Positions 746-29,100 of a stretch of DNA of 64,000 nt are shown in pieces. The position numbers and the translations under genes were made by a program. This DNA is from Halanaerobiaceae bacterium ANBcel28 (lineage in GTDB: Bacteria; Bacillota; Halanaerobiia; Halanaerobiales; DTU029). Under the pieces are notes generated by a model. It saw only the letters and a list, made by a program, of their open reading frames with translations, made no database searches and had not been told where the DNA came from. Positions within the stretch are counted from its first letter, which is position 1, and each line of letters opens with the position of its first letter. The stretch spans positions 77,019 through 141,018 of the forward strand of contig JBBJJH010000001.1 of NCBI GenBank assembly GCA_037623315.1. Reading direction: 5' to 3'.

Positions 746-2101
746 TTAATAAAACGGATATTGGTCTGGAGATTCCCCTTTGCTTCCAATAATTTCAGGT
801 TCAAAAATATCTGTTTTTTTATCAAGAATTTTTTCAACAGATATATTTATCTTCCAATTATCTCCGAAATCGAATAAGTAGAGAAAATTTTTACCTACAT
901 ATAAATTCAATTCACCTATTTTTATTTCTTCGACATATGGTCCTCTATTACACATTTTAGAATTATAGAAAATATTTGAACCATATACTCCATCCATGTA
1001 GAAAGAATAGAGATGGTCATCGTCAAAATCATAGGCTTTTTGTATAATATTATGTAAATCCAACAAAGTGTGATTATCTGCAATTTTTATCTCTCGCCAC
1101 ACTCTATTATTGTATGAGCATTTAAAAATATAAATACCTTCCTTAAATTTTTCTTTCAGACTTGAAAGGGTCTTTGTTAGTACACCAGAAGGGAAAATAG
1201 GCCTAAAAGCATGATAGAAGATATCGACTTCTATTTTGTTTTTTATCTTTGTTTTATCATTTAATTTTGACTTGATTTTTGCTTTGAAATTTCTCTTTAG
1301 TTCAGCATGTTGCTGATCTGTTAAAATTTTGCTTTCTTTTACTTTGTCAAAAATAAAGTCTGTAAGTATCCCATTATAGTTGTTTTCTCGTTCAAAACTG
1401 TTTTGATATGGACGATTCCAATTTGTAATTTTCCTTTTATTATAAAGAACATCTGCTAATAATATCCCCAATTTATTTGCTATTATTTTACCAGCTTCAT
1501 ATTCTTGTGTACTTAATGATTCACATTCAATGACATCCCAAAAACCAAAATAATAGAAGTTTCTTAGAAAGGCATTCCTCTCAGAAAAATACACTTGATA
1601 ATATCCTCCATGTATTTTTACTTCTTCTCCTGCTTTTAAGGCACATAAAATCTCTAAAACACTATCAACAGTAGCCAGAGATAAGTTATCATGATTATGA
1701 ATCCCTATACTCTCCCAATCAATATCAACCCAAAATGTTTCCAATAAAAAGATATACTTCTCATAAAAATTCAATTTTTTATAAGTATTATAGCTATCAG
1801 AAACCATCAATTTAGGTTGACGATTTCTACTATCTACTAAACACAACTGACTTTTTGTACTTAAATGAAATAGCAAGTTCAAAAAGGGATAGGAAAACTG
1901 ATTACTTTTCTCAGTAACACCCTCTTCTTTATTAGTCATTAATGCATTCATCGCATAAAGATCTTTTTGTTTCAAATTCTTTTTTTTCAAAGTAAGAATC
2001 AAATCATTAGCACTTATATACTCCATAAATAGGTCAAAATCCTCGACTATTGATGGACAAAAACTTTCTTCTTTTGAAAGTACTTTTTTGTCTCTAGACA
2101 T
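746..2101 (-). CDS. pRiA4b ORF-3-like domain protein (C-terminal), unknown N-terminal domain
   Basis: C-terminal segment IYIFKCSYNNRVWREIKIADNHTLLDLHNIIQKAYDFDDDHLYSFYMDG matches the plasmid pRiA4b ORF-3 family signature (WRrI.v..TL.dLH.viq.amgW.d.HLheF). Confidence 0.55.
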   Translation of the reverse strand: MSRDKKVLSKEESFCPSIVEDFDLFMEYISANDLILTLKKKNLKQKDLYAMNALMTNKEEGVTEKSNQFSYPFLNLLFHLSTKSQLCLVDSRNRQPKLMVSDSYNTYKKLNFYEKYIFLLETFWVDIDWESIGIHNHDNLSLATVDSVLEILCALKAGEEVKIHGGYYQVYFSERNAFLRNFYYFGFWDVIECESLSTQEYEAGKIIANKLGILLADVLYNKRKITNWNRPYQNSFERENNYNGILTDFIFDKVKESKILTDQQHAELKRNFKAKIKSKLNDKTKIKNKIEVDIFYHAFRPIFPSGVLTKTLSSLKEKFKEGIYIFKCSYNNRVWREIKIADNHTLLDLHNIIQKAYDFDDDHLYSFYMDGVYGSNIFYNSKMCNRGPYVEEIKIGELNLYVGKNFLYLFDFGDNWKINISVEKILDKKTDIFEPEIIGSKGESPDQYPFY

Positions 2102-2176: not shown

Positions 2177-3745
2177 TTACATTCCCCAGATTACAATCTT
2201 CTTATCATTATATTCCTTCTCTTTTCTGAAAATTTTCTCCTCCCAGCCCTTATCTTCACTTTTATCAAAAATAAGCAAATGACCAGTATTTGTTCCCGTT
2301 CTATCCATATATTCTGCAGTTTGTTCAAGACCAAGGGCTATTGTTTTTTCTAGACTCTTATGTAAGATTTTAAGTTCAAGTACATATTTACTACTATCCT
2401 TCCACTCAATAAGTATATCAGTCCGCATTTTCCCAAGACCATATTCTCTATAAATTCTACCACCACCATTAACTACCCTCTGTAAAAAGGCCTGCAATAA
2501 AAGCTGGGGACCAGCTTCTTTATAAGCAAAGCGTTCAATCCAGGTTTCTGAGTTTTCACGAAAAAATTCCTGGAAATTTTCAATAAGTTTACTGACATTT
2601 AAGCTGCCATCTTCATTTACATACCACTCTGGTTCATATAAAGAACCTAAACTCATTTGACTTATATAATTCAATTCTCTAGGAATAACTTCTTTATAGA
2701 TTGGGTTTGAAATTTCTATTTTTCCGTTAATGTTGCTAACTAAACCTAAATCTATAAGATATTGTAAATCATCCTGTGGAATTTCTTTAATTGCCAGTCC
2801 TTCTAAAATCGGCTCGATTATATTTTTAACTCTTTCTTCTTTTAATTTATCCACCAGTTGATCAAGATGAGTGACTCTACTTAGAATTAATTTATCTTTA
2901 GCTTGATTAATTAAGTCTACAGTTATGGGATTGTTTCTATCTTTTCCTTCTGGCATTTCGAAACATGCTTCATAAGCTAAAGCATTTACTAGCCAGGGTT
3001 GCCCCTTTGTCAAATTATAAGCCAGTTTTATTGCATCTTCACTAAATTCCTGTCCAGTTGATTCTGTATGTTGTAAATATAAGAATTTTACATCATTTTC
3101 TCTAAAATTTCCCAATCTTATTGATTTTGCTTTGACATTAAAACAACTGCCACCTGTAATAATTTCATTATGCTCACTGGAATGAATTCTATAGTCTCTC
3201 ACATCTCTTACACCACATAATATTATGCTTTGAGGGAATGCATTAGGTCTGGTGTCATACCTACTTCTTAACTGACGTAGAACAGAAATAAGAGAATCTC
3301 CTACTAATGAATCTATTTCATCAATAAGAAGAACTGTTGGTAAATCATTTTCTTGAGTCCATTTTGTTAAAATATTTGCTAATGCAGTGTGAGAACTTTT
3401 AAGAATATTTTTAACATGCTTGCTCATTTTATTTTCATTTAAATATATTGTTTCCCTATTTTCAAGCTCACTTAAAATAGATTCCATCGCTATTTCTACA
3501 TTCTCTCTAGCCGCTTGAGCACTTTCAACATTTATATACAAGCACTTATATTTTCCACTTTTATTCAAAAGATCCATAAGGGTTAAAAGACTGCTTGTTT
3601 TACCACTCTGTCTGGGTGCATGTAGTACAAAATATTTTTTCTGATCAATTAAAGAAAATATCTCTTCTTTATTTATTCTCGCAGTTATTGGTACATGATA
3701 ATGATCTTTAGCCACTACCGGCCCAGCTGTATTGAAAAACTTCAC
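2177..3745 (-). CDS. AAA-like domain ATPase (FNTAGP-type), unknown function
   Basis: N-terminus MKFFNTAGPVVAKDHYHVPITARINKEE...VLHAPRQSGKTSSLL is the hallmark of the AAA-like domain family (FNTAGPV..HY...R + Walker A PRQSGKT). Confidence 0.6.
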   Translation of the reverse strand: MKFFNTAGPVVAKDHYHVPITARINKEEIFSLIDQKKYFVLHAPRQSGKTSSLLTLMDLLNKSGKYKCLYINVESAQAARENVEIAMESILSELENRETIYLNENKMSKHVKNILKSSHTALANILTKWTQENDLPTVLLIDEIDSLVGDSLISVLRQLRSRYDTRPNAFPQSIILCGVRDVRDYRIHSSEHNEIITGGSCFNVKAKSIRLGNFRENDVKFLYLQHTESTGQEFSEDAIKLAYNLTKGQPWLVNALAYEACFEMPEGKDRNNPITVDLINQAKDKLILSRVTHLDQLVDKLKEERVKNIIEPILEGLAIKEIPQDDLQYLIDLGLVSNINGKIEISNPIYKEVIPRELNYISQMSLGSLYEPEWYVNEDGSLNVSKLIENFQEFFRENSETWIERFAYKEAGPQLLLQAFLQRVVNGGGRIYREYGLGKMRTDILIEWKDSSKYVLELKILHKSLEKTIALGLEQTAEYMDRTGTNTGHLLIFDKSEDKGWEEKIFRKEKEYNDKKIVIWGM

Positions 3746-3952
3746 AAAATCATCTCCCTTTTATATTTCTATTTAATATTATAAGCTAATTTTTCCTTTT
3801 TTACAACTAAAGATAATACTCAATTAAACCATATCTCTTTGCCCTTTCACTTTCTCCCTCGACTATCTTTTCCACACTTTGCATAAAATACTAAGCAGCC
3901 AGATTTACAGGAATTCAATCTATATCTTCCCTATAAACTGTAAATATCTTTA

Positions 3953-3998
3953 TTTGAAAAAAAGCCAGCCATTTATCCCTGTAAATGACTGGCTGAGT
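3953..3998 (-). terminator. rho-independent terminator ending the Wadjet/phd transcription unit
   Basis: Minus strand: CAGCCAGTCATTTA-caggga-TAAATGGCTGGCT followed by TTTTTTTCAAATA. Confidence 0.75.
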
Positions 3999-4079
3999 AG
4001 ATTGATTTGTATTATTCTTACATCTATAATATTTAAATAAGATTACTTTATCTGTACGTATAATTTCATACTTCATAAT

Positions 4080-4349
4080 TTACTTCCTTGAGGAAAGAGA
4101 CTGGCGTATTCCGTCAAAAGTATCCTTTATAGGTGCCACACGGCCTTGAGATAAATCTTCCTCTGATTCAGCCAGCATTCTTAGTAATTTTAGTTCTGAC
4201 TTCATTTGTTCATATTCTGCTAATCCAAGAATTACTGTATCTCTCCTACCATTGACTGTTATATATACTGGTTTTCTAGTTTCATGACAAACTTTTGATA
4301 TTTCACTATATTTATTCCTTAAATCAGCGAATGGTCTAATCATATCCAT
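4080..4349 (-). CDS. Phd/YefM family type II antitoxin (no cognate toxin ORF detected)
   Basis: 89 aa; ...RKPVYITVNGRRDTVILGLAEYEQMKSELKLL... typical Phd/YefM fold signature. Confidence 0.7.
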   Translation of the reverse strand: MDMIRPFADLRNKYSEISKVCHETRKPVYITVNGRRDTVILGLAEYEQMKSELKLLRMLAESEEDLSQGRVAPIKDTFDGIRQSLSSRK

Positions 4350-4447: not shown

Positions 4448-5749
4448 TTAGATCAATTCCCTCTTTATATCACTGATAAGCTCATCAATAAGCATTTCCT
4501 GATATCCTGCCATAGTATTTTTCTTAAGATAAGCAGCAAGATCTTTCAGTTTTTCATTCTTCAAATTCGCCAGTTTACTCAAACTTTTCGCACTTATTCT
4601 TTCTTTAGAAAGGGTTTTTTCGTAATCAGGCAGACTATATCTCCACAGTACTAATTTATCCCTATACCTACTTTTCAACCTATCTGCTATGCCTAAACCT
4701 TCTGGATCAAAATCTCCTGAGTAATAAATAATCGTATCTTCTTTAACCAGCATATCCAGTAGCAAAAGTGATGCTAGCTTTAACTGACCACTAGTACAGA
4801 CTAGGGACAAGTTATCATTACCCAAACTATCTATGATACTTGAAAAAACAGCAGGGTTTTCAAGTACAAAAACTTTGTCAAGAGGGCTTACTATTCTCTC
4901 AATAGAGCTTAGATTTTTAAGAGAGAGCAGCAGCGGTTCTTTCCTTTTACTAAAACCCTTCCATCCCTGATGAATCTCTCCATTACTTTCTGCCTCCAGT
5001 CCATAACAGAGGGTGTAATTGGCTACTTCATTGATTAAGATACCAGCATTATAGAATAGCTCTGCCCTTTCTTCAGCATTATTGGGTTTCTCACTGTTAA
5101 ATTGATATACTAAAGCATATTGAAGTAGGATATCAAGGTCTGTACCATGGTCAAAGGCATGTGGATTTTTTGTAATCTGAGAAGCAAAAACTGCCAGACG
5201 TGTCTTTTTTCCCCCATGGATAGGCAAGTTGTTTAAGGCACGAGCAGTCTGATAAATATCTATCTTAAGTTTTTCTGAATCAATATTATATCTTTTTAAG
5301 AGAAGACTATAGGCATTGTTTTTATTAGAGTAAAGATCCATAAGCCACTTAGCTGCTGGTCTGCCTTCCACCTGATTTATAATTTTTCCAAAAAATTTTT
5401 TTCTCTCAGACAAGTAAATATATCGTTCTTGCTTATATGAAATGATCTCTTCTTCTAAAAAATATTCTTTCAATATATCTTCTAACAATATACCGTCAAA
5501 CCTTGTTCCCTGTAGGGCTTCCTCAAATTTTTCAAGTCTTATTGTGGCCTGTTTCTGCCTGCTATAATCCTTTCTAAAATAGCCTGTTAAAGCCTCTTTT
5601 TCCTGCTGGCTTAGATTGCTAAGAACTATTTTACCACCAATTTTTCCTAGTGATTTATATTTCTTTTTCATCTTCAAAAAAACCCTGGAAAAGCCAGGAT
5701 TTTTTTTAAAGTATTCAACACAGTCTTCTAGCAACTTATTATTATTCAT
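4448..5749 (-). CDS. jetD: Wadjet JetD (DUF2399/TIGR02679, Toprim-containing)
   Basis: Toprim-like motif IIYYSGDFDPEGLGIADRL near C-terminus; last gene of the jetABCD arrangement. Start taken at ATG 5749 (AGAGG SD 9 nt upstream); track start 5758 is TTG. Confidence 0.75.
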   Translation of the reverse strand: MNNNKLLEDCVEYFKKNPGFSRVFLKMKKKYKSLGKIGGKIVLSNLSQQEKEALTGYFRKDYSRQKQATIRLEKFEEALQGTRFDGILLEDILKEYFLEEEIISYKQERYIYLSERKKFFGKIINQVEGRPAAKWLMDLYSNKNNAYSLLLKRYNIDSEKLKIDIYQTARALNNLPIHGGKKTRLAVFASQITKNPHAFDHGTDLDILLQYALVYQFNSEKPNNAEERAELFYNAGILINEVANYTLCYGLEAESNGEIHQGWKGFSKRKEPLLLSLKNLSSIERIVSPLDKVFVLENPAVFSSIIDSLGNDNLSLVCTSGQLKLASLLLLDMLVKEDTIIYYSGDFDPEGLGIADRLKSRYRDKLVLWRYSLPDYEKTLSKERISAKSLSKLANLKNEKLKDLAAYLKKNTMAGYQEMLIDELISDIKRELI

Positions 5750-5804
5750 AACCATCAACCTCTGATATATTATATATAAGAAAAGTTAGGATCAATTTTG
5801 CAGT

Positions 5805-6209
5805 TTAGCCAATAGAAGCGACTGCTAAATCTAATGTATTAGCAGCTTTTATTAATCTTTTGTCTAAAGTTACTAAAGTAGAATTCTTTCTTCTGCAAGT
5901 AACTAAGTACATCGCATCATAAGCAGGATGATCAATTTTACATGATAGCGATATAGCTTCTTCATAAACATCTTCAGCTTTGATGAATTGATCTACTATT
6001 TCTGTCATTTGCCTTGTTTTAGTAAGCAAATCATCTAAAGGATAGTTTTGAATAGAATGATATTTCCACATTACATTAGATGCTTCATAAATATATAAAG
6101 AAGGAGCTATAATCCAATCAGCATCTTTTAGAATATCAATTAGTATTTTTTGTTTGGGTCTTCCCATGACTATTTCAACGGCAGCACTAACATCAATAGT
6201 AAAAATCAT
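5805..6209 (-). CDS. vapC: PIN-domain toxin VapC
   Basis: 134 aa; MIFTIDVSAAVEIV...EASNV...DAMYLV...TLDKRL: PIN acidic residues at canonical positions; 4-bp ATGA overlap with upstream antitoxin. Confidence 0.8.
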   Translation of the reverse strand: MIFTIDVSAAVEIVMGRPKQKILIDILKDADWIIAPSLYIYEASNVMWKYHSIQNYPLDDLLTKTRQMTEIVDQFIKAEDVYEEAISLSCKIDHPAYDAMYLVTCRRKNSTLVTLDKRLIKAANTLDLAVASIG

Positions 6210-6454
6210 CGTTCTCTATCCTCTCTGATAAGAGGAACAGGATCAAGAATATCTTGGGCTTTTTTATTACCAGTTTCATCTATAATACTGTTAAAGAAAA
6301 TTTTTCTTCGTTCTTTATTATGTTTTTCAATTTCTAAGGCTTTTTCAAGTAAAACAATAGTTTCTTGAGTTATACTTCTTCTTTCAGTTTCAGCAAGTTG
6401 AACAATTTTTTGATAGATATGTTCGGGTAAGTCTCTAACTTGTAAAGAAGGCAT
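6206..6454 (-). CDS. vapB: ribbon-helix-helix antitoxin VapB
   Basis: MPSLQVRDLPEHIYQKIVQLAETERRSITQETIVLLEKAL = RHH (CopG/Arc) motif; AAAGGTGG SD 7 nt upstream of this ATG (track start 6472 lies in the SD). Confidence 0.75.
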   Translation of the reverse strand: MPSLQVRDLPEHIYQKIVQLAETERRSITQETIVLLEKALEIEKHNKERRKIFFNSIIDETGNKKAQDILDPVPLIREDRER

Positions 6455-6536
6455 ATTGATTCCACCTTTCATATTTGTCTAGATATATTATAACATATTG
6501 CAAAGCTTCATGCAATGTGCATGAATAACAACACAG

Positions 6537-9500
6537 TTAGCTTACAAGTGTTCTCACATTACCATCCCATTGATAACGAATAACTGATACAACATCAGCA
6601 TTATTAGGCCTTACTAATTCACAGATAGAAAGTGATGGTACTGTATCATAATCACCCCATAATACCTGAGAGTTTATCACAAAACTAAGATCTAACTCCT
6701 CTAATAGTCTAAACATATCCCTGATATTATTGCTGTCAACACCAGCAAAAGCCTCATCAAGTGATATAATTCTCGGGCAATCCTTACGACCATTTTCATA
6801 GCGGGCATATACAGCAGAGAACAAAGGAACATACATGGCCATTGCCTTTTCTCCCCCACTAAATCTATTAAAGGCATTGTTTGTAAGTTCTCTTTTGGGT
6901 TCATTTGTTTTCTGATAATAGAGACGAAATTCAAACCATTTGCGGTAATCAAGGATATCTTTCATGATAGCATGGAAGGTCTGGTTTGATCCACTATCTT
7001 CCATCACCTTTCTGACTTCACTTATCTTTGATCTAAAGTGTGCAGATAGTTTTTTAAAATCCTCTTCTTTCAGAAGACTGGCTTCTGATTTCAATATCTC
7101 TACTAATTCCCGAGTATCCATCTGCTCCTCAGTTTCTGCTACTCTACTTTTCCAGCGCAGGCTAAATGACAAGCCACTTGAGGTGTCCATACTTTCCATT
7201 AACTTATTCATTTTCTTAACCCACTGTTCTGCATGATAGATCCTGGCTCTGATTTTTTTGCTAATAGTGTTTGCCAGAATATCTTCAAACAATTGACGAT
7301 CACTTTCTTTTAGTAATTGTTCATTTTCAACAATAGATTCTTCTATAAAATCAACAAGTGTATAAAAATTAACATCTTTACCTTTAATACGAGCAGTAAA
7401 TTCTAACCTTTTAAAGTCTTCTATCATTTGATTAATATCTAAATCATCTATTTGCTTTATTTCTTCTTGCCAATCATCTTTAGTAAATAGATGTTCAGCC
7501 ATTAAATTATACTCAGTCAGATATTGTCTGTTCTGATAATATTTATCTGTCAAACTAGTAATGTAATCTATTTTTGATCTTTTCTCATCATCTGATCTTA
7601 AGCTCTTATATACTCCCCTGGCAGATGCAAACAAATCCTCTTCGTCTTCTCGACTATAGACATATGCTAAATTAATTTCCTTTTCAAAGGACAATTTAGA
7701 GATAGTATCAATCTCTTTTGCTCTTAGAATCCTCTTTTCTAAGCCAGCTAAATTATTAGCTATCCTCTGATATTTTTCCTGAGAAACAGCAGATCTTTTT
7801 GACTCTTTTTGCAGCTCTTCAGGTATTTCTTTTAAGACATTTATACATTGGTCAATTTCCCTTTCAATTTCTTGATAATCTGTTTTCTCCAGGATCTCTC
7901 GATAGCTGGCTATTATCTCGCTATTTTCTTTCAACTCCCGCTCAAGCCTATTGAGATCATAGAAGAGGTTGTCTATATCCTGCAGAACATCTTCAATCTG
8001 CTCCTGGCCATTACTTAGCTGATACCTTTTATTGACAAGCAAGGTATGTTTGCTACTTAACTCACTTAAGTGATCCTTATAATCTTCAGCTGCCTCAAGT
8101 GCTTCCTGATAGGCATTCAGATTAAGTGGAAGATAAATTTTTGCCGTAATTTCCTGTACCTGTTCAGATACTTCTTTTAGCTTTTTATATATTTTTTCAG
8201 CTTCTTCTTCCTTGCGTTTGGTTTCCTTTTGATGGTTTTCTAAGCTCAAACTAGCATTTTGAAGCATTTTTAGTCCAGTTTCCAGGTCATCTTTTCCAGG
8301 AAATCTTCTAAACTCTTCCTGAATAAGAGCTAATAACTCCTGTAGTTTTTTAATTTTAATTATCTCTTCCTCTATGTGACTATTTAGATCTCTAATTTCT
8401 GCTTCTAATCCCTCAATAACTTGCTGGCGATATTCTTCGCGGGCTTGAACACCAATATACTTAGCCTCAAAAGAAGCACTGGCCTTTCCCCTTAAAATAC
8501 CAATGCTAAATTCACCCTTTTCATTAAGAAATGTTAGTGAATCCCCCTTATTTAAGACAATACTCTTTAGCGCCTGATCAATAATAGCAGGGGTAATCTG
8601 ACTATCTTCTACTTTTTCTGCCTTTAAGAACAATGAAAGTTCATGGGTCATATATTGTGGATTGGAAAATATATATTTATCAGCCATACCTCTATCCATA
8701 TTAAGGACATCTTCTTCGCGGTACTCCTCGGGAACAATTAAGGCATCCAGTAGTCCCATGTCTATTAAGGCCTCTTCTAAAACTCCCCTGGCTTCTTGAG
8801 AAAGATCATCGCGAAAATCAACTGCTTTATAGAAGGGTAGGAAAGGAATTCCTTCCTCAGCCAGTCTTTCACGATTGCGAAGAACCTTTTCTTCTCTAGG
8901 GGGTTCTGGATCCTTTTTCTTTTTCCATTCCTCCAATTCTTTTTCCTTCTCTTGAAGCTCTTCTTGATAGCTATCTATAGTTGCTTCTATACTGGAATTC
9001 TCTCTATTAATATTACTTTCCAGCAAAGATGTTTTCTTTCTAAGCTCTACAAGAATATCATCAAAACTAGACCCTTCACCATAGCTCCTTACTATTCTTG
9101 AAAGATTTTGCATTTCCTCTTCAGATAATTTCAGCAGTAAATTATTTTTTTCCCAGCGATAGACCTTTTCTAAATATTCATCACGGGTCTCATCAAATAG
9201 GGATTGTACTCGTTCAAGCTCTCTACTGGCATCATCTTTTTCTTTTTTTGCCTGATCAAGAATCTGTAAAGCACGATCATATTCTACTTTTTGCTTTTTT
9301 TCCTCTGCTAGCTTTTTTAGCCCCTCTGCTATCCTCTCTCTATATCTAAGCAACTCATTTTTTAAATAAGTAAAGTCATATTCCCGTGGAGGCTTTTGAG
9401 CTATTTCTTCACTGGCAAAAGAATGTTCATCAAACTTAAACTCTTCTGCAAATTCAGCCATCTCTTTTAGGATAGTATTAATCTCTTTATCTAAATACTG

Positions 9501-10640
9501 ATATTCTTCTTCAAGATTTTTGTATTGACTTTGTAATTTCTTTTCTCTTTCTTGCTTTTCCTCCAGGTTTGTCTTCTTAGCCTTGTGCCGTTTTTGCAAT
9601 TCCTTTTCTTTTTCTTCCCTTTTATCAATTTCAATTTTGGCCTGATAGCTATCATGTTTTTCCAATTTCTGTTTTTTGTGTTCATATAATGTCTGCCTAG
9701 AATTAAGTTCATCAATTTTCTCTTCAGCTTCTTTATAAGCTGAATGAAATTCTTCCATAGCATTTTGCTGTTTTTCCAATTCTTCCTTGCTATCTTTTAA
9801 CTCCTTTTGAGCATTCAGATAAGTTTTTGCTTTTTCTAATAAAAGAAATCTATTATAGCGGTCATATTCACTTTTCAATTTATCTGCAGCTGCTTTACTT
9901 TCTTTTAAAGCCTCTAGCTGGGTTTTAATATTATCCATATTCTCAATGGCTTCTGACATTGGCCGCAAATCTTCATCAGATAGTGGCTGGATGGCATTAT
10001 TCATAATGTCATATATAACAGTTGGCTTAAAATCCTTGGATAGTTTAGGTGTGCGCAATTGCACAAGTAGTTTAACCAATTCATCATATTCCTCTATATT
10101 TTCAAAACCAAAGAGAAGCTTATTGACCATTTCCATATAATTTCCCTGACTATCGTAAAATTCACCACCATTGGCAACTCGATTTCTCAACTCAATCTTA
10201 CTTAAAGGTACTTTGTCCCCCATTTCCTTATAAAGAAAGAAATCTTTTCCGATTCTTCTGCCATCAGTAAGAGAAAACCCCCAGGAATTTAAAGGTTTTC
10301 CCCGTCTAGCTTGAAATCCCATGCCAATAGTTAGATATCTACCTGAATCCTTTTTCGCAAATTCCATATATAGATAGCCAGTACGCTCATCCTGTCCATT
10401 TTCATCTTCTCCAAGTAGGTAATTGTCCATCTTTCGAGCTCTAGAGCCAAAAGGATCCAATCTTTCTGGACTCCTATTACCATCAAGCAAAAGTGGTATA
10501 AAACTCTGCATGGTTACAGACTTACCTGATCCGTTTGACCCTCTTAGTAATAATCTACCATTTGAAAAATGAAACTCTTCTTCATCATAATACCAAAAAT
10601 TAAGCAAGCCCACTTTGTTTATTATCCATTTATCCTGCAT
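6537..10640 (-). CDS. jetC: Wadjet JetC, SMC-like ATPase (TIGR02680)
   Basis: 1367 aa; Walker A RGSNGSGKSVTMQ at N-terminus; long coiled coil; C-terminal RFSGGEKAMAMYVPLF (signature-like) and ISLDEAFAGVD Walker B; 1-bp overlap with jetB. Confidence 0.85.
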   Translation of the reverse strand: MQDKWIINKVGLLNFWYYDEEEFHFSNGRLLLRGSNGSGKSVTMQSFIPLLLDGNRSPERLDPFGSRARKMDNYLLGEDENGQDERTGYLYMEFAKKDSGRYLTIGMGFQARRGKPLNSWGFSLTDGRRIGKDFFLYKEMGDKVPLSKIELRNRVANGGEFYDSQGNYMEMVNKLLFGFENIEEYDELVKLLVQLRTPKLSKDFKPTVIYDIMNNAIQPLSDEDLRPMSEAIENMDNIKTQLEALKESKAAADKLKSEYDRYNRFLLLEKAKTYLNAQKELKDSKEELEKQQNAMEEFHSAYKEAEEKIDELNSRQTLYEHKKQKLEKHDSYQAKIEIDKREEKEKELQKRHKAKKTNLEEKQEREKKLQSQYKNLEEEYQYLDKEINTILKEMAEFAEEFKFDEHSFASEEIAQKPPREYDFTYLKNELLRYRERIAEGLKKLAEEKKQKVEYDRALQILDQAKKEKDDASRELERVQSLFDETRDEYLEKVYRWEKNNLLLKLSEEEMQNLSRIVRSYGEGSSFDDILVELRKKTSLLESNINRENSSIEATIDSYQEELQEKEKELEEWKKKKDPEPPREEKVLRNRERLAEEGIPFLPFYKAVDFRDDLSQEARGVLEEALIDMGLLDALIVPEEYREEDVLNMDRGMADKYIFSNPQYMTHELSLFLKAEKVEDSQITPAIIDQALKSIVLNKGDSLTFLNEKGEFSIGILRGKASASFEAKYIGVQAREEYRQQVIEGLEAEIRDLNSHIEEEIIKIKKLQELLALIQEEFRRFPGKDDLETGLKMLQNASLSLENHQKETKRKEEEAEKIYKKLKEVSEQVQEITAKIYLPLNLNAYQEALEAAEDYKDHLSELSSKHTLLVNKRYQLSNGQEQIEDVLQDIDNLFYDLNRLERELKENSEIIASYREILEKTDYQEIEREIDQCINVLKEIPEELQKESKRSAVSQEKYQRIANNLAGLEKRILRAKEIDTISKLSFEKEINLAYVYSREDEEDLFASARGVYKSLRSDDEKRSKIDYITSLTDKYYQNRQYLTEYNLMAEHLFTKDDWQEEIKQIDDLDINQMIEDFKRLEFTARIKGKDVNFYTLVDFIEESIVENEQLLKESDRQLFEDILANTISKKIRARIYHAEQWVKKMNKLMESMDTSSGLSFSLRWKSRVAETEEQMDTRELVEILKSEASLLKEEDFKKLSAHFRSKISEVRKVMEDSGSNQTFHAIMKDILDYRKWFEFRLYYQKTNEPKRELTNNAFNRFSGGEKAMAMYVPLFSAVYARYENGRKDCPRIISLDEAFAGVDSNNIRDMFRLLEELDLSFVINSQVLWGDYDTVPSLSICELVRPNNADVVSVIRYQWDGNVRTLVS

Positions 10641-11794
10641 TATTCTCCACCTTCTATCTTAAAATCATCTGGATATTTACCTATAATCTTACCCACTAAA
10701 GGAAGTATCCTTATTTCTTTCCTACTATTATCTGCTTCTAACATACTAAAACTTTTCATATATACTATAAGCTCTTCTACTAGCTTTTCTATACTCATCT
10801 CTCTATAGCCTTTGCTCCAGCCTGAATGATAGCGCTGATGACAAAGAACTACTATATTCGCAAATTTGACCTCTGAGATAGTTATGGTATCATCTTCTTT
10901 TTTGCTAAGATCCCCTTCTTCCAGCATTTCTCTGATAATAGCATTCATCTGTAATACAATATCTGATATACTCTTATTATCAGGAAAAACATCTTTAAAA
11001 TATTTGCTTTCATCAAGAGAAATAAAGGCACCATTTTTATGAACATGGAGTTCACTTTCTAGCAGATCCTCTACATCTTTTTTTAGCATATTGCGATAGT
11101 TTTTTATATAAAGGTAATCAGCATCATCAACACCCTCATTATAGACTACAGGAGACATAAAAAGACGGCGGTATACCCTGTTGCGCCTGACCCTTCCCCT
11201 ATCTCGATCCAGATCCAACCATTCGCCTTTTTCGATATCTTTGTATGAGGAATAATTGCTTATATTTCCGGCAAAATTCAGCATAAAGTATTTAGAAAGA
11301 CCAGTGTTTTCATATAGTACCTCTTCTTCAGCTGAACTAATAAAATTAGAGTCACTACCATCATTTGTTTTTATAAGGAAAATATCTTCTGCAAAGCGAA
11401 GCACTTTTACAAGATGTCTGCGATGATTGTATAGTGTCCAATCAAGCTCTATATCTCTATCTTGTGGAAAAATAGCTTCAATAAAATCTGTCAGCTGTGA
11501 GAGTATAAACTGTTCTTCTGCTCCTTTATCCTCAAGAAAGGTCAACAACAAGGTTAAAAAGGCATATTCTAATTTGTCAGTGAATTCTTCAATACCCATC
11601 CAGGATTCTGGTTTACCAGGTAACTTCTCTAATTTTATAAGATAGGGATTGATTATAAGTCGATATCCCAGCCTGTCCTGTAAAAAAGTTTTTAATTTAG
11701 GATAGGCATCTTTTATTCGATAGTAAAGTTCTTTGTCTTCTTCCTTACTAATCCAGTATCTTTCCAGTAATATCTCCAGTTCTTTCATAAGCAA
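10640..11794 (-). CDS. jetB: Wadjet JetB (DUF2398/TIGR02678, MksE-like)
   Basis: 384 aa acidic protein sandwiched between kleisin-like jetA and SMC-like jetC in the canonical order. Confidence 0.7.
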   Translation of the reverse strand: MLMKELEILLERYWISKEEDKELYYRIKDAYPKLKTFLQDRLGYRLIINPYLIKLEKLPGKPESWMGIEEFTDKLEYAFLTLLLTFLEDKGAEEQFILSQLTDFIEAIFPQDRDIELDWTLYNHRRHLVKVLRFAEDIFLIKTNDGSDSNFISSAEEEVLYENTGLSKYFMLNFAGNISNYSSYKDIEKGEWLDLDRDRGRVRRNRVYRRLFMSPVVYNEGVDDADYLYIKNYRNMLKKDVEDLLESELHVHKNGAFISLDESKYFKDVFPDNKSISDIVLQMNAIIREMLEEGDLSKKEDDTITISEVKFANIVVLCHQRYHSGWSKGYREMSIEKLVEELIVYMKSFSMLEADNSRKEIRILPLVGKIIGKYPDDFKIEGGE

Positions 11795-11804
11795 TCCTTT
11801 CTCT

Positions 11805-13325
11805 TTAAACTACACTTTGTTCAATTTCTACTTCCTGTTGAATATTTTCGACCAAAAACATAATCTTATAAGCAGGCATGGTTAGATTCCCATCTTCACA
11901 TCTAAGGATACAATCTTGCTCATTTACTGGCTTAATTAATTTGAATTCTCGTCCATCTTCTGTCTTTGCTAAATTGTTATGAGATGCGGTAGCTTTCCCT
12001 ATCCATTTTAATAATGTTATTCGGACATGTGATGGAATGAGGGGTAATTCTGAAAAATCAATTATATTCTCCTGAATATAGCTATCAATTACCTCCTGCT
12101 CCTGCTTCCTTTCTCGAATATATATTTTAAGTAATTTTTTCTTTTTTTTGGACTTGTCCTCTATAGGAATTCTTTTTCTCTTTTCCCGATAACGTCTAAC
12201 TCGTGGTTTGATTTTTAATTCCACTGCTGCCTCATCATAGATACCACTATTAATACTTTCGGTTTCTCTATTGATATTTGCTTTGATGTGACGGCTTCGA
12301 AAAATACCAAAACTAAGAGATGATAATTTGTTTGCTTCGTCCATATCCTGACAGTCTAAAAACAACTCACAAAGTTTCCGATACTCCTCTTTCCGATTGG
12401 CAGCACTATTACGATTTTCAATAATCTGGGAAGCAAAGCGTGTAATTTTCCTGATAATTTCGTTAGTAATTTCGAATAATTTTACTGCCTCACTCTCAGC
12501 CTCTCCACTCCCTAGAAACCAATCGCGAAAGTTTTTCCATCTGCCGGCTATATTTTCTTCTAAATCTTGATCTGTGACTTCATTTTCCAGTCTAGGTATT
12601 GACTTCTCAAATTGCCATGCCTTCTTCAATACCTTTTCCACCTGAGAGTCACTAAGTTTTTTAATTGTTTCTTCTATAATATAAAGATTTTTCTGTAGCT
12701 CTTTAACAAACTCTCTTAAGTAATCTATGACAGCATCTTTATAAGCAATAAATTCCCGAGTTCTCATCATTTCTTCTGCTTTTATACTATAAAAGCTACG
12801 AATATAATCCTGATAGTTTTGATTCAAGCGTTTAAAGTCTGTATTTAAATCCCTCCACCAGAGACCTACAACTTTTAGATCCTCTTCTGCCATAGAGGAG
12901 AATTTCTGAACCTCATCTTTAATCCGCTCAAGCAAGGTGGGTTCCAGAGAAGCCCCTTCCACAAAAATATTCTCTAACTTAATAGTCATTCGCTCTATTT
13001 CCACAGAGTATTCGGAGAGTTGATATCTAAATTGCTTATTCCTGAATTCTTCTATAGTTGCCGATTTAGAGGTATCCTGCATAGCCACTAAATTACCCCA
13101 ATCCAACAAGACGTCAAGATCCTGCTTACACTGTTCCATAGTATAATCTTTAAAAATCTCATGTTTTTTTAATTCCTGAAAGACCTCTTCTTTATACATC
13201 CAGTATTTGATTTTTTCATATTGCTCATAGAAATACCTTAGTATAGGACGATAACGCCATGAGTTATCTGTATTAAGATATTTCACTTCTACAAGCGGCT
13301 TTGTCAGCTTGGAATTAATATTCAT
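11805..13325 (-). CDS. jetA: Wadjet JetA (DUF2397/TIGR02677, MksF-like kleisin)
   Basis: 506 aa, first gene of the jetABCD arrangement. Confidence 0.7.
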   Translation of the reverse strand: MNINSKLTKPLVEVKYLNTDNSWRYRPILRYFYEQYEKIKYWMYKEEVFQELKKHEIFKDYTMEQCKQDLDVLLDWGNLVAMQDTSKSATIEEFRNKQFRYQLSEYSVEIERMTIKLENIFVEGASLEPTLLERIKDEVQKFSSMAEEDLKVVGLWWRDLNTDFKRLNQNYQDYIRSFYSIKAEEMMRTREFIAYKDAVIDYLREFVKELQKNLYIIEETIKKLSDSQVEKVLKKAWQFEKSIPRLENEVTDQDLEENIAGRWKNFRDWFLGSGEAESEAVKLFEITNEIIRKITRFASQIIENRNSAANRKEEYRKLCELFLDCQDMDEANKLSSLSFGIFRSRHIKANINRETESINSGIYDEAAVELKIKPRVRRYREKRKRIPIEDKSKKKKKLLKIYIRERKQEQEVIDSYIQENIIDFSELPLIPSHVRITLLKWIGKATASHNNLAKTEDGREFKLIKPVNEQDCILRCEDGNLTMPAYKIMFLVENIQQEVEIEQSVV

Positions 13326-13379: not shown

Positions 13380-13409
13380 TTCAATAATAATTATAAGTAA
13401 TAATAGTAT
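13380..13409 (-). promoter_or_regulatory. consensus sigma-A promoter of jetA (TTGACA-18-TATAAT)
   Basis: Minus strand: TTGACA (13409..13404), 18-bp spacer, TATAAT (13385..13380); about 55 nt upstream of the jetA ATG. Confidence 0.7.
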
Positions 13410-13532
13410 CTTGTGTCAAGGAAGTATAGAAGAAGCTCAGTGCAAAACAGCCATATTCGCTGTACTTATCAAGTTTAAAATTCTTTTACTTAAGTATTTA
13501 CATTTCATTTCAATTCTTACAAAAGGTTTAGA

Positions 13533-14090
13533 CTACCAGTTACTAATAATTCCCAGCTGTATAAATGCAACTGAAAGTAAGCTCAATAACCTATATTTAG
13601 AATTTCTTAAGTAATAATGCTCCTGCCTATTAAATATATCCATATTAGCTCTTGCAAAATTATCGACATCAAAGTCTATTTTTTCTCTTTCTAGATATCT
13701 TTTTAATTCATTTACAGCTTCCTTAATTGTCCCATCATTTATATTATTTATTTGCATATGATTATTTGCAACAAGAAATGCCTTTGTTTCTGTACCAAGT
13801 GAAAAAGCAAGATCACAGGAATTAATATAGAAGTTAGATATGCAATAGCTTTCTATTGATGGATAGCTTAATAATAAAACACCACCCCGCATATCATCGT
13901 TATCATATGGATCTCTTAATTTTTGAATTAATTCTTTAATAAATTCAATATCTTCATTTGATTCTGGATCTCTATCAAATAAATAATATATCGCTGTATT
14001 ATCAACAGGGAAACTGTATTTAGTTATTAATTCCTCATATAAATTATCTAAGTAACTATTTTGGTCTTTAATATAAGAAATTATTAAGTT
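13533..14090 (-). pseudogene. Toprim-like C-terminal half of an OLD-family nuclease, in a frame shifted relative to the upstream ATPase ORF; no in-frame ATG/GTG/TTG before residue 67
   Basis: I translated the minus strand by hand. The frame is open from 14090 (just after an in-frame TAA at 14093..14091) down to the stop at 13533, 186 codons. The only canonical start is the ATG at 13892. The 66 start-less codons contain IYYLFDRDPES (a DxD Toprim-like motif), and SYPSIESY lies downstream. Confidence 0.45.
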
Positions 14091-15238
14091 TTATCATAGT
14101 TTGGAAGCCCCTCAAAAATACCGCTCAAATACATTTTTTCTAAATTCTGAGCTAGTCTAGGTTGTTCATCAGAAAATCTCTTAACCCAACTACCTTCTGA
14201 TCCATTAAAATTAACAGAATAAACCTGATCAGGTCTTAGAATTGAAGTGCTTAATAAATTAGTAGAATGGGAGACAAAGAAAATTTGAGAAGAGATTGAT
14301 GATTTCATAAAGTGTTTAATCAATAATTCTTCTAGTTCATTATGAAATCCACTTGAAAATTCATCTACTAAAAGCATACCTTTCTTATTTATAATATTTA
14401 AAAAAGAAGGTAATATATTTAGCAGAGTTTGATTTCCTAATGATTCTTCCTCATAGGGAATAACTGTAGCTATATCTTTTCTTCTAAAAAAAACAGTTTT
14501 ATTATTATCTATAGTTCTTAAATTTACCTTTCCATCAGAAAATTCCTTAGAATATTCTATTACCTGGTCAAACTTATGCTTCTCAAAAAAACTATTAATA
14601 CTTGCAGTACCCTGGTTTTTTAAAAACTCATCTAATAATAATTCTTCTTTACCATAATGAATTACATCACTATCAAAAGCATTAATATATATCGAATTCT
14701 GTAAATATTCAAACCAAGTCTTTAATATTTCATTACCTGCAAATCTTGTATTGAAATATAATGTTCTTAAAAATAATGTTTTATTATCCAGATCATCCTC
14801 ATCGTAAATAGTTTCTTTTTCGTCAACTATATAAGACCGTGCATTAAGGCCCATTCTATCTAGTAATAACTTATCTTCTATATGCAATTTCTCAAAAATA
14901 ATATTCTTTAGTGGATTGTTTATCACTGAATATCTAATTTCTTTATCCTTTATCTTAAAATAATAATCAATAGAAAATTCTTCTTCATCAGAGAATAAAC
15001 ATTTATAAATTCTTGATTTAGTATTTTTTTCTCTAAATAGCATATCTAATAAAAATTTTATTGCAATAAGAATATTAGATTTTCCAGAAGCATTTGCACC
15101 AACAAACATTATACCTTTTAGTATACCATTATCAGCAACATTACTATCTTCTAAAAATCTATAATTAGTTCGAGAAAAATCAATTTCAGTCTTCTCTTTA
15201 AAAGATTTAAAATTTTTGATTTCAACTTTTGATAACAT
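14084..15238 (-). CDS. OLD-family / AAA_21-type ABC ATPase (N-terminal half of an Old/GajA-like nuclease)
   Basis: MLSKVEIKNFKSFKEKTEIDF...FVGANASGKSNILIAIKFL (Walker A), LLVDEFSSGFH (Walker B); ends ...LSGIFEGLPNYDKT*, where FEG resembles the first Toprim glutamate motif. Confidence 0.7.
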   Translation of the reverse strand: MLSKVEIKNFKSFKEKTEIDFSRTNYRFLEDSNVADNGILKGIMFVGANASGKSNILIAIKFLLDMLFREKNTKSRIYKCLFSDEEEFSIDYYFKIKDKEIRYSVINNPLKNIIFEKLHIEDKLLLDRMGLNARSYIVDEKETIYDEDDLDNKTLFLRTLYFNTRFAGNEILKTWFEYLQNSIYINAFDSDVIHYGKEELLLDEFLKNQGTASINSFFEKHKFDQVIEYSKEFSDGKVNLRTIDNNKTVFFRRKDIATVIPYEEESLGNQTLLNILPSFLNIINKKGMLLVDEFSSGFHNELEELLIKHFMKSSISSQIFFVSHSTNLLSTSILRPDQVYSVNFNGSEGSWVKRFSDEQPRLAQNLEKMYLSGIFEGLPNYDKT

Positions 15239-21660: not shown

Positions 21661-22473
21661 TCACTCTACATTATCCCTTGGTGTATAATGTCTTTTTAAC
21701 CATTTACACAAACCATCTAAACCAGGAAAGAGTACTCTTTCTGTAATATTTGCCTGATCAAGTTTGTCCCTTATTTCCCACTTTAATTCTTTGGGAACTA
21801 GTATCTTCTTATATAAACCAGGATGCTTTTCTAACCACTCGTCTAATACTAGCTTGGGATCTGATAATACAGAAAAGAGAGCATACTGGTTGATTATTCT
21901 GCCACTTGAAGAAGGTGGCTCAAAAAAGAATAGAACTGGATCTTCAGAAACATTATTTAGTTCTATAAAATTATCAATCTCTTTATTTAACATCTCTGCT
22001 GTAAAACTATCTGCTGCTTCATTGTTTAATATGTTCAAAAGTCTTGCTGGTAATAATTTTTTTACTTCAACAAAATTAATACACCAGATAACACCATCTC
22101 TATCAAATTGATCTATATCTTTTGTTGCAAAATGCAATGCTACATAGGGCGAATACGTCCAATCTAGTAATCTTGTGGGCAAACCGTGATGTTGTGCTAT
22201 AGATAGATAATTCCAGAAACCCATTTCTCCTGTAAAAGAAGAACTTGAATATTTTATAAAGTTCCTCATTAAACTTTTTTCTAGAAATTCATACTCATCA
22301 CAAATAAGTTTTAGACTTGTTTTTAATTCATGTTTCTTATCAGACATTCCCCTATATACAAACTTAGAACGATACCTAGATATTTCCTCATTCCAACTAT
22401 CACTAAATAATTGTTCCTGGAGATCTCCCCAACTCTTAACCTCAATAACTTTGTCCATCAAATCCCCTTTCAT
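21661..22473 (-). CDS. FRG domain protein
   Basis: FVYRGMSD...AQHHGLPTRLLDWTYSPYVALHFA matches the FRG domain signature. Confidence 0.6.
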   Translation of the reverse strand: MKGDLMDKVIEVKSWGDLQEQLFSDSWNEEISRYRSKFVYRGMSDKKHELKTSLKLICDEYEFLEKSLMRNFIKYSSSSFTGEMGFWNYLSIAQHHGLPTRLLDWTYSPYVALHFATKDIDQFDRDGVIWCINFVEVKKLLPARLLNILNNEAADSFTAEMLNKEIDNFIELNNVSEDPVLFFFEPPSSSGRIINQYALFSVLSDPKLVLDEWLEKHPGLYKKILVPKELKWEIRDKLDQANITERVLFPGLDGLCKWLKRHYTPRDNVE

Positions 22474-26122: not shown

Positions 26123-29100
26123 TTAAGTAGAGATATTCTGCAAGTTTTGCTTATTAGCAATCAAGTTTAGATTTTCCCCTATAGTATTTAATTCTTTAAT
26201 TACTTCTTTTACCCTTTGACCGTCTTTTTCTGATTTTTTATCAAGGTAAATTTTCTTGATTTCATTCCATCTTTTTTCTTGTTCTGCTGACATTCTACTG
26301 CTAATTTCATAGAATTTTAGCAAACTAGCTTCTGCATGTGTTGCTAATGTCTGAGCATCATTGATATAGCTATTTTCTACTAATGCATCTATTTCCCCAT
26401 CATTCATAATAGAAACTACTTTTTCTACGATTTTATTCATATTTCTATAAGATCCTTGTAACTTAAATGGAGGTTCTGTTCTATATTCATCATTCTGAGA
26501 TGAAGAATATATATACTCCATATTTACCCGTAATATTTCATCCCTTATTTTAAGACAACTTCGTAAAACACTTAAAGCTTCTTCTATCTCTTCCTCAGTA
26601 TAAGTTCCACTTAAGTTAATCTCATCTCTATTTCCTGTGTTTACAATTTGAATTAGTTTATAGATATCCTCTGGCTCCTTCATATAAATAGCATTTAGAT
26701 GCTTATTTGAAGTAATTGAATTCTCTATATAACTTAACTTAAATGCTTCTTCATTTTCCCTCAACATATCTCCTAAATTATAAACATCTGCTCTGTTAGC
26801 TAGCATATCAGGAATCTTGAATTTATCTCCACTCTCAGTGTAAGGGTTACCGGCCATCACTACACAGACCTTTTTTCCTCTAAACTGATAGCTTTTACTA
26901 AGTCCCTTGTAAACACCTTCTATCTTTCTCTGCCCATCACATAAAGAGATAAACTTCTGTAAGAATTCTGGATTTGAATGCTGGATGTCATCTAAATAAA
27001 TCATCACATTATTCCCTATTTCAAAAGCTAAGTTTAGCTTTTTAATTTCCTCTCTAGCACTAGCATTCTCGGCCTCTGTAGGATCAAGAGAGCAAACTCC
27101 ATGACCAATAGTGGGGCAATTTATTTTAACTAGGAGCATATTCAATCTATTAGCAACATACTCTACAAGGGTTGTTTTCCCATAGCCTGGTGGAGAAATC
27201 ATCAAGAGCATTCCCATATTGTCCGTTCTCTTACTCTTTCCTGCTGTACCTATCTGTTTGGCTAAATTATCACCAATTAAGGGCAAATATACTTTATCAA
27301 TCAACTTACTACGAACAAATGATGTTAAAACTTTTGGTTTTAAATCTTCAAAATTAAGTTCCTTTTTAATAGTTCTAATCTTTTCAAACTTAAGTTTCTG
27401 AAACTCTTTATATAGAGGTATTATCTCATTTGTGAAATTATCCATTTTATCAAAATAGTCTACTAGATTTATTTTGTATTTACTATTATCAATTACTTTA
27501 TGGTTTCCAAACAACTTATTTATACTTATTTCTGATTTTTTATTAACAATTCTTCTTTTCGAATAATCCCCGAAGATCAAGATAGCCAATACTTCGTATA
27601 TATAATCACTAGAAGATATTTCTTTCTCATATAAATAAGATTGTAACCATTCATATATCAATATATATTTTCCCTCTATATCTTCATCTAATTTTTCTAT
27701 AGATTCTTTAAAATCCTTCTTCCCATTATTTGAAATCAGAAAGTTATTAAATTCTTCATATAATTTAGCTGCCTCTGCACTTAAAACAAAACTTTCATTC
27801 TGACTAATTTCTTCAGCCAGATATTTTGCTACTTTTTCACATGAACTACATTCTATCCACTTATTTTTTTCCAAAAAAGATCTTATTTCCTGACTTAATG
27901 CCGGGATAAACCCTAGAAGCAAATCCCTTTTGGAATGTTTAGAGATCAGATTTGCAGCCTTCAATCTTTTAGCCAGTTTTTCTTTTACTTCTTTTTCCAG
28001 GCCAATTTCCCAAAAAATATTAGCTATAGCTCTGATTTTAGGATTATATGAAGCCAGTTCTAATTCAAGGTAAGTGTCTACTATAGCACTTAGTATCTTT
28101 TGGCCATCATGGTCATGAACTCCTTTTGTATAGTATTCATTGGAGTGATTTTGAATATATTCTTTTACGATTTTCTCTAATTTCTGCTGACCCTCTTTAT
28201 ACAAGTCTTTTAAAGACTTATCTTCCTGATATCTTTTAAAAATATTGTATGCTAGAAATTCTCCACGATAGACATTGTCATTTTCAGATATAAGTTCTTG
28301 TTCCCAAACAGCTTGATAGTTAATAAAGTCTCCTCCATCTACCTTTTCCCAAAAATCTGTACCTGAAATATGAAAATAGAATCCATCTTCCTTTTTCAAT
28401 AAACTAAGTTCAGCCTTTTGATTGTTAACAAGAAATTGATTATTGCCAAATTTAATTGTATTTTCATCCAAAAATAGTTCATTTTTATCTTTAAGCTGTT
28501 TTACAGAAGATTCTTTTAGAGATTTTAACTTGTTTTCGATATCATCGGCTTTAGTACTATCCCCAAGTTCAATTAACTGTTCTATAATATCTCTTATTTT
28601 TTCTACCATAGGACTAGTAGAGAATAACTCAGTAATTGCACTTACTTCTTCCAAAGATTGTATTCTATTTTCTAAATTCTTCAATATTCTATCTGCTGCA
28701 TTACCTAAAGAAGCAATTTTTCTATTTTTCTTTTCAATTAACTGCTGTTTTTTCCCTTCAAATGTTGATATGATATCTTCCCTTTTTTCCGTTAACATTA
28801 CCAGGAAGTCATCAAAATCAGAAAACTCACTTTCTAATTCATCTATCTGAATTATTATTTTTGACATATATTCTTCAGTTTTTGCCACAGTATTAGATAA
28901 ATCTAAATGGTTAGAGACAGCATGAGTTAAAAGATTTAGTTTAGAATAAAATTCTGCTTCTTTTTCTTTAGAATTCAAATTATCTATTATATTTTTTAAT
29001 TTAGCCTTACTCTGATTTAAGTTTGAAAAAAGCACAGAAATCTTATCAATAATCTCAGCCGTTTTTGTTGAATCTTCGATTTTTAAATTATTCACTATAT

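Follow-up and report, generated by a model that had tools for sequence, protein, structure and literature searches.

A vapBC toxin-antitoxin cassette between jetC and jetD of a type II Wadjet operon in Natronospora cellulosivora

The classic case of a gene embedded in a defence system is PrrC in EcoprrI, where PrrC is silenced by the host system, and toxin-antitoxin (TA) cassettes are reportedly known from defence islands (Makarova et al. 2011, as cited in bioRxiv 10.1101/2024.01.29.577857). Embedded genes have been described in the multi-gene defence systems Hma, BREX, DISARM and type I restriction-modification (RM), and Wadjet is not reported there as a host of such genes (Payne et al. 2024, bioRxiv 10.1101/2024.01.29.577857). 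Plasmid cleavage by type II Wadjet follows the same mode as that by type I, with JetD acting in complex with JetABC (bioRxiv 10.1101/2025.03.10.642339). Here we analysed a 64-kb stretch of Natronospora cellulosivora DNA (the window, in whose numbering all positions below are given) in which a TA gene pair, vapBC, separates jetC from jetD in a complete type II Wadjet operon. It is a new instance of a known phenomenon, and the cassette itself is of an ordinary kind. We consider it very probable from the sequence comparisons that the pair is an autonomous type II vapBC passenger or addiction cassette that entered the jetC-jetD spacer in the Natronospora lineage and whose effect on jetD transcription would be incidental.

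The jet genes and their candidate promoter, from upstream to downstream, are the following.

13390-13419, minus strand: candidate sigma-70 promoter of the jet operon, TTGACA-18-TATAAT (12/12, a consensus match only), 65 nt 5′ of the jetA start
11805-13325, minus strand: jetA, kleisin of 506 aa, DUF2397/TIGR02677 (Pfam 1.4e-151; PADLOC JetA2 1.8e-205, full length)
10640-11794, minus strand: jetB, tandem KITE subunit of 384 aa, DUF2398/TIGR02678 (Pfam 4.2e-106; PADLOC JetB2 8e-152)
6537-10640, minus strand: jetC, SMC-like ABC ATPase of 1367 aa, TIGR02680 (889 bits; PADLOC JetC2 E=0, aligned over 1-1366)
4448-5749, minus strand: jetD, Toprim nuclease effector of 433 aa, DUF3323+DUF2399/TIGR02679 (PADLOC JetD2 3.6e-155)

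According to the list of open reading frames (ORFs), the minus-strand order is jetA, jetB, jetC, the ribbon-helix-helix (RHH) antitoxin gene, the PIN/VapC toxin gene and jetD; the four jet genes among them form a complete type II Wadjet operon at 4448-13325. The four families are present in the order jetA-B-C-D on one strand, and 4/4 jet products are of full length, with nearly end-to-end matches to the PADLOC type II profiles (E 1e-152 to 0). The jetB stop overlaps the jetC start, the jetC product also matches Pfam SbcC_Walker_B, and the JetC C-terminus is collinear with that of the related loci L007, L004 and L005. For jetD the longest ORF is 4448-5758; we placed the start at the ATG at 5749, which gives a protein of 433 aa that is 100% identical to NCBI MEJ6949439.1, preceded by the ribosome-binding site (RBS) AGAGG at 5759-5763 within a conserved RBS block, AGAGGTTGA. 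The JetD Toprim motifs E297-N298 and D346-F-D348-P-E-G are invariant in the JetD alignment. What departs from the type II arrangement is the adjacency of jetC and jetD, between which 787 nt and two genes are found; this separation is an architectural deviation in which no component is lost. An earlier note on this DNA had reported a TA pair in the jetC-jetD space of a complete Wadjet operon, with the same orientation as the jet genes, and the ORFs and profile matches confirm it. The note's jetD start of about 5750 agrees with the ATG at 5749, as in the NCBI record, and the space that it put at 780 bp does exist, its measured size being 787 nt (6536..5750). The JetD, RHH and PIN proteins correspond to MEJ6949439.1, MEJ6949441.1 and MEJ6949440.1 of Natronospora cellulosivora, encoded on a contig of 262,599 bp.

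Wadjet loci were collected by genome and metagenome scans with a JetD alignment as query (a single JetD protein gave none in the genome contigs), and 152 other type II loci, some of them redundant, entered the gap statistics. Among these the median jetC-jetD gap is 2 nt, and 150 of the 152 loci have gaps of no more than 266 nt. The vapBC pair is present in 0 of the 152, and tblastn gave no RHH or PIN match in 160 Wadjet loci. If the insert were an integral fifth gene it should be universal in related loci, a check proposed earlier; it is not, as jetC and jetD are adjacent in L007 (a Halanaerobiales metagenome-assembled genome (MAG); JetD 79% identical, spacer 167 nt), L004 (72%, 106 nt) and L005 (69%, at most 81 nt), with no ORF in any of the three spacers. 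The jetB-jetC junction is tight in 67/67 loci (-56 to +45 nt). Unrelated DNA is found in the jetC-jetD gap of two other loci: in L070 (1792-5995, 4.2 kb) an ORF that by eye is like an IS3-type transposase together with HD-domain and CHC2 zinc-finger (primase-like) genes, and in L038 (5141-5983, 844 bp) one hydrophobic ORF of 73 aa. Therefore the jetC-jetD junction tolerates insertions; on these comparisons it appears to be the one junction of this operon type where foreign DNA is tolerated, with the vapBC insertion confined to one lineage. A further apparent large insert, in the Petroclostridium locus L019 (5555-6022), was rejected, as the locus is degraded and a JetA N-terminal fragment abuts jetD there. 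It may also be noted that, when the same loci are compared, JetD consistently differs more than JetB and JetC do (L007 against L004: JetC 91% and JetD 74% identical), and that the window JetC is 92-95% identical to that of L007 at the head-proximal ends and only 72-77% in the middle of the coiled coil. A swap of a jetD module at the junction was considered and rejected: JetD is the more divergent protein in every pair compared, so there is no sign of a swap specific to the Natronospora genome.

The cassette carries three features of its own.

6487-6524, minus strand: vapB promoter and predicted operator, a palindrome over the -35, a 17-nt spacer and an extended -10
6206-6454, minus strand: vapB, 82 aa, with a FitA/Arc-like RHH N-terminus and a C-terminal tail; the longest ORF would begin at 6472
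5805-6209, minus strand: vapC, predicted PIN-domain ribonuclease of 134 aa (PF01850, AlphaFold2 (AF2) model, Foldseek; NCBI MEJ6949440.1, 'VapC family toxin')

The downstream ORF is, by sequence and predicted structure, a VapC-type PIN toxin. Its product scores 35.1 bits against PF01850 (cut-off 23.6) with residues 5-123 covered, and D6, E42, D98 and D116 align with the acidic residues of Pyrobaculum PAE0151 and PAE2754; across 31 homologues there is no variation at E42, D98 and D116, and conservation of D6 is 90% or higher. The AF2 model (pLDDT 96.7, pTM 0.89) finds PAE0151 as its best Foldseek match (E=2.8e-7, TM 0.82), followed by VapC proteins of M. tuberculosis, Shigella and Rickettsia and by FitB. 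The PIN profile, the four acidic residues, the PIN alpha/beta/alpha fold and the cognate antitoxin gene upstream all agree with membership in VapC. An antitoxin gene lies directly upstream of the PIN gene in 9/9 other loci examined for which the upstream sequence was available. As for what had been claimed of the pair, the 4-bp overlap is borne out in the sequence as ATGA, the RHH stop and the PIN start, and the catalytic acidic residues, whose absence would have spoken against a toxin, are all four kept. The RHH gene itself stands as described, though its start is most likely not at 6472 (longest ORF 6206-6472): the second ATG, at 6454, is the most likely one, as it follows the conserved RBS GAAAGGTGG, fits the homologues (82-83 aa) and gives the protein MEJ6949441.1 of NCBI.

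The upstream ORF probably encodes a FitA/Arc-like RHH VapB, as sequence and model features suggest. Its family counts 465 homologues, many with a precomputed match to FitA-like_RHH (PF22513), and a search for NCBIfam families gave no match to the protein. A profile search of the PDB with the family returned AmrZ alone (E=0.05). In the AF2 monomer (mean pLDDT 82) an extended N-terminus is followed by helices at 11-23 and 28-67, with residues 11-50 at a pLDDT of about 95, and the top-ranked Foldseek matches of this model are nearly all RHH proteins (AmrZ, Arc, CopG, MatP, CopA, AtaR and TacA). The probabilities reach at most 0.98 with weak E-values of 0.12 or more, as is expected because only 45 residues are compared.

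In front of vapB lies a promoter that is absent from the earlier note. A palindrome, TCATGCAcatTGCATGA, at 6508-6524 overlaps the -35 element TTGCAT (6510-6515), and a 17-nt spacer carrying TG at 6494-6495 leads to the -10 element TATAAT at 6487-6492, which gives the layout TTGCAT-17-TGnTATAAT. We aligned six cassettes (those of the window, Halocella, Halothermothrix, a Tepidanaerobacteraceae MAG and two metagenome contigs), and among these different genera little or no variation is seen in the palindrome core ATGCAnATTGCATG, in the TG and the -10, or in the RBS and first codons. The palindrome is unique in the window; a second VapB operator elsewhere, for instance at jetA, was looked for and rejected, as there is no site within 3 mismatches in the window. 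A palindromic putative operator at its own promoter, conserved in six cassettes and found once in the window, is what is seen for antitoxins of this type. The layout is that of a classic autoregulated type II TA operon, in which VapB would bind and repress.

Downstream, only 55 nt separate the vapC stop from the jetD start. A simple consensus scan of the minus strand gave no terminator-like site from the jetA start to 3994, and the first one past the jet genes is as follows.

3963-3994, minus strand: terminator-like hairpin with a T-run, found by consensus scan, 3′ of the Phd/YefM gene

The two intergenic RNAs that flank the cassette fold no better than shuffled sequences (z = -0.10 and -0.34), and Rfam and tRNA scans gave no match in the cassette region. 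With no terminator-like site in view, transcripts from two promoters probably reach jetD, those of the jetA promoter (through the cassette) and those of the vapB promoter. Having its own putative operator-controlled promoter, the cassette is also predicted to be an independent transcription unit that is able to read into jetD. In this respect the earlier note was right that no terminator is visible between jetC and jetD; its conclusion that the genes are 'therefore co-transcribed' is only what a terminator-free stretch would lead one to expect, and it leaves out that the cassette would also be transcribed as a unit by itself.

The relatives of the cassette show where such pairs usually reside. 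For the PIN family 93 homologues could be detected, most of them from Halanaerobiales and Clostridia related to these, and we looked at eight other contexts of cassettes that are 65-90% identical (Halocella, Halothermothrix, a Tepidanaerobacteraceae MAG and metagenomes). None of them (0/8) is in a Wadjet locus; each is a self-contained pair of genes for 82-89 aa and 134 aa, set among metabolic, transport or miscellaneous genes. A second VapC copy, MEJ6949981.1, which is 91% identical, is present on another contig (189,708 bp) of the same Natronospora genome, and the window holds no paralogue of the cassette. Neither the RHH nor the PIN protein has a PADLOC match. Carriage by phages was rejected, as phage records and viral contigs hold no relative, and so was carriage by plasmids, where the matches are only distant (<34% identity). 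Composition does not discriminate a foreign origin, the GC content being 30% in the cassette, 34-35% in the jet genes and 31.6% in the window. Two options had been put forward for the pair, a selfish or addiction-type module and a co-opted component of Wadjet. The former is favoured, the nearest relatives standing alone among unrelated genes, and the latter is unsupported; we found no evidence here for the cassette as a fifth Wadjet component.

The extent of the cassette can be read from DNA homology to these stand-alone copies, which runs from about 7-12 nt past the jetC stop to about 20 nt past the PIN stop. The whole cassette measures about 740 bp and occupies roughly 5785-6530. Imperfect inverted repeats of 18-19 nt, GTTATryGAAGTTCAGC ... 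GCTGAATTTyrCATAAC, flank several of the stand-alone copies. These repeats, and two features at the vapC end of the window copy, are listed here.

2815-2833 and 3577-3595 of L002: inverted repeats of a stand-alone copy
5645-5662 and 6406-6423 of L170: inverted repeats of a stand-alone copy
4971-4988 and 5732-5749 of L171: inverted repeats of a stand-alone copy
5785-5804 of the window, minus strand: degenerate 3′ cassette end ACTGCAAAATTGATCCTAAC, counterpart of the 3′ repeat GCTGAATTTyrCATAAC by alignment
5764-5774 of the window, minus strand: second copy of the 11-mer TATAATATATC, abutting the conserved jetD RBS block

In L002 and in L170/L171, which represent two genera, the distance between the repeats is exactly 743 nt, and weaker versions are seen in L001 and L167. 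Their arrangement suggests a TA cassette that is MITE-like (a miniature inverted-repeat transposable element) or mobilised by a recombinase. No target-site duplication or cognate transposase was identified for the cassettes with inverted repeats, and the literature on TA cassettes with terminal inverted repeats gave nothing relevant by title or abstract. Around the cassette in the window we found no adjoining integron attC site, integrase or transposase. The 11-mer has its first copy at 6482-6492, within the vapB -10 region on the minus strand, and just two copies in the 64 kb against 0.26 expected (2/100 shuffles reach 2). Homology to L007 and L004 resumes right after the copy at 5764-5774, which may be the -10 of a weak jetD-proximal promoter, a junction microhomology or a chance occurrence in AT-rich DNA. 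That the 11-mer repeat records how a circular cassette was integrated by a single crossover was rejected, since the palindrome would then be downstream of vapC, and it is not.

Some observations count against a simple insertion of a passenger cassette. The window copy has no flanking inverted repeats, nor does the window hold any match to the repeat within 3 mismatches; the 5′ repeat is missing because the 3′ end of jetC occupies its place. Hence the repeats do not give the insertion route, the event need not be recent, and the inverted repeats were rejected as the mechanism of insertion here, being found around stand-alone copies and absent from this one. Although homologous, the Wadjet loci nearest to this one show no synteny with the window at their flanks, so that the word insertion rests on the family-wide architecture and not on an empty orthologous site. 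The RHH protein scores 24.8 bits against FitA-like_RHH (PF22513), which is under the cut-off of 27. Also, the same-strand setting and a read-through into jetD would equally suit a co-opted arrangement.

On the reading that we prefer, an autonomous cassette tolerated in the spacer, the pair would work as its family does elsewhere. VapB dimers would bind the palindrome over the -35 and repress the pair, and the C-terminal tail of VapB would block the VapC active site. Were VapB lost or degraded, VapC, as a presumed Mg2+-dependent PIN endoribonuclease, would cut an essential RNA and arrest growth, so that loss of the locus would be penalised. Characterised VapCs cut initiator tRNA or the sarcin-ricin loop of 23S rRNA. 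Wadjet would meanwhile function as usual, JetABC extruding loops and sensing small circular DNA and JetD cleaving it. As to the position, the jetC-jetD junction is the only one in this operon type that is not translationally coupled, so that an insertion there breaks no gene.

An alternative that overlaps with this reading is that the pair has been kept by selection because it guards against deletion of the Wadjet genes and of the defence island around them; it differs in claiming selection at the level of the host or island and not mere tolerance. TA pairs are known to stabilise integrons and islands. Both toxin and antitoxin are intact here with all family-invariant residues, the cassette lies in the middle of the operon so that a deletion of jetC-jetD would also remove vapB, and the surroundings are like a defence island (AbiLi-like ATPase, Phd antitoxin, AAA+PD-(D/E)XK protein). 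A linked benefit of this type is discussed for embedded genes (bioRxiv 10.1101/2024.01.29.577857). Yet the arrangement is found in 1 of about 153 loci, hence there is no recurrent selection, and the 91% identical paralogue in the same genome could cross-neutralise and so weaken addiction. Sequence alone cannot separate selection from neutral persistence. We regard this explanation as possible and keep it as a tentative one, doubtful as it stands.

Regulatory co-option, by which the VapB-controlled promoter would be the main or a stress-inducible promoter of jetD and JetD would rise upon VapB degradation, appears improbable to us. The conserved extended -10 promoter is directed at jetD, the short distance from the vapC stop holds no terminator-like element, and the jetD RBS is kept, but this support is purely positional and no other locus has the arrangement. 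Moreover, JetD works in complex with JetABC (bioRxiv 10.1101/2025.03.10.642339), and with the palindrome nowhere else in the window there is no second VapB site near jetA.

Some TA pairs do act in phage defence. A second line of defence similar to PrrC in EcoprrI, in which VapC would be freed when an invader inhibits Wadjet or host transcription and would act by abortive infection or plasmid exclusion, has a precedent in embedded back-up effectors ('guilt by embedding', bioRxiv 10.1101/2024.01.29.577857), but is very unlikely, given that 0/152 other Wadjet loci have the pair while 8/8 relatives lie elsewhere, that neither protein is known to PADLOC or has a relative in phage or viral collections, and that an antitoxin of its own leaves no need of a Wadjet partner to keep VapC inactive. 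Functional integration of the cassette with Wadjet is, taken generally, hardly to be expected. The same low credence applies to its specific versions, a VapB-repressed promoter that makes jetD and vapC inducible or a VapC fail-safe for when a plasmid or phage disables Wadjet; if true, a TA back-up or regulator built into a Wadjet operon would be seen here for the first time, analogous to PrrC in EcoprrI.

Other genes of the window may be described briefly. Directly downstream of jetD is a gene of the Phd/YefM antitoxin family (4080-4349, minus strand), followed by an ORF of 53 aa (3915-4076, minus strand) that starts with MKYEIIRTDK, runs through the hairpin at 3963-3994 and has no Pfam match; by eye it resembles what is left of a truncated toxin, in which case the Phd/YefM gene would be an orphan antitoxin. 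Further downstream of the Phd gene are two genes that may belong to defence or to a mobile element (2177-3745 and 746-2101, minus strand), the first for an AAA/NACHT-like ATPase of 522 aa whose C-terminal domain is a PD-(D/E)XK nuclease, the second for a PRiA4_ORF3-domain protein of 451 aa. Just upstream of jetA lie an AbiLi-like/PDC-M12A-like AAA_21 ABC ATPase (14084-15238, minus strand; PADLOC 1.4e-45) and an unannotated ORF of 119 aa (13533-13892, minus strand), which probably form a further defence system of two genes. A DUF3686 + DUF7902 + AAA protein of 1632 aa overlaps a partner of 657 aa without a Pfam match, with an FRG-domain protein nearby (26123-31021, 31014-32987 and 21661-22473, minus strand), and these may form a further defence-like system. 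The sole Rfam match in the window is an FMN riboswitch (RF00050, 53843-53961, minus strand, 117 bits), and the tRNA scan found no tRNA genes in the window.

With this locus Wadjet joins the multi-gene defence systems that are able to carry a nested module, and the tolerance to insertion is located at the jetC-jetD junction and not at jetB-jetC. In the literature searched there was no paper that links Wadjet with an embedded TA pair, which is consistent with the earlier remark that Wadjet operons split by a TA cassette are not known, while embedding in defence operons in general had already been described (bioRxiv 10.1101/2024.01.29.577857). For annotation it matters that a pipeline which expects the jet genes to be contiguous could overlook such loci or break them up, and the observation is also relevant for the engineering of Wadjet operons. 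If the cassette promoter truly feeds jetD, the locus would be a natural example in which TA autoregulation governs a nuclease effector. The arrangement carries little weight for biology in general, being a single-lineage event with a cassette of a very common type.

Compared with the solved VapBC/FitAB systems (FitAB of N. gonorrhoeae, PDB 2BSQ; VapBC of M. tuberculosis, 5X3T; Pyrobaculum PAE0151, 2FE1), the pair has the antitoxin gene first and the 4-bp overlap alike, and shares the 134-aa PIN protein with four acidic residues, the probable RHH-like antitoxin N-terminus, the palindromic putative operator over the promoter and a predicted fold with TM up to 0.82. It differs in a sequence identity of only about 10-21% to the solved VapCs, in an antitoxin hidden Markov model score just under the Pfam cut-off and in its unusual place inside a Wadjet operon. 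Compared with type II Wadjet of Neobacillus vireti (JetABCD-II), the same four families occur in the same order at full length with the JetD Toprim motifs kept, whereas the 787-nt jetC-jetD gap with two extra genes stands against the median of 2 nt in the 152 loci. Like the TA cassettes known from defence islands, or as stabilisers of integrons and genomic islands, the present one is mobile, multi-copy and set where defence genes are frequent, except that it is inside the operon and not beside it. Unlike PrrC, which is held silent by its host system, the vapBC pair has its own antitoxin and promoter. Like the embedded genes of Payne et al., it is a small nuclease-based module that shares the strand of the defence operon in which it is nested, no gene of which is disrupted here; the host is Wadjet, and in place of the repeated association across genomes that marks a recurrently embedded module we find a single occurrence.

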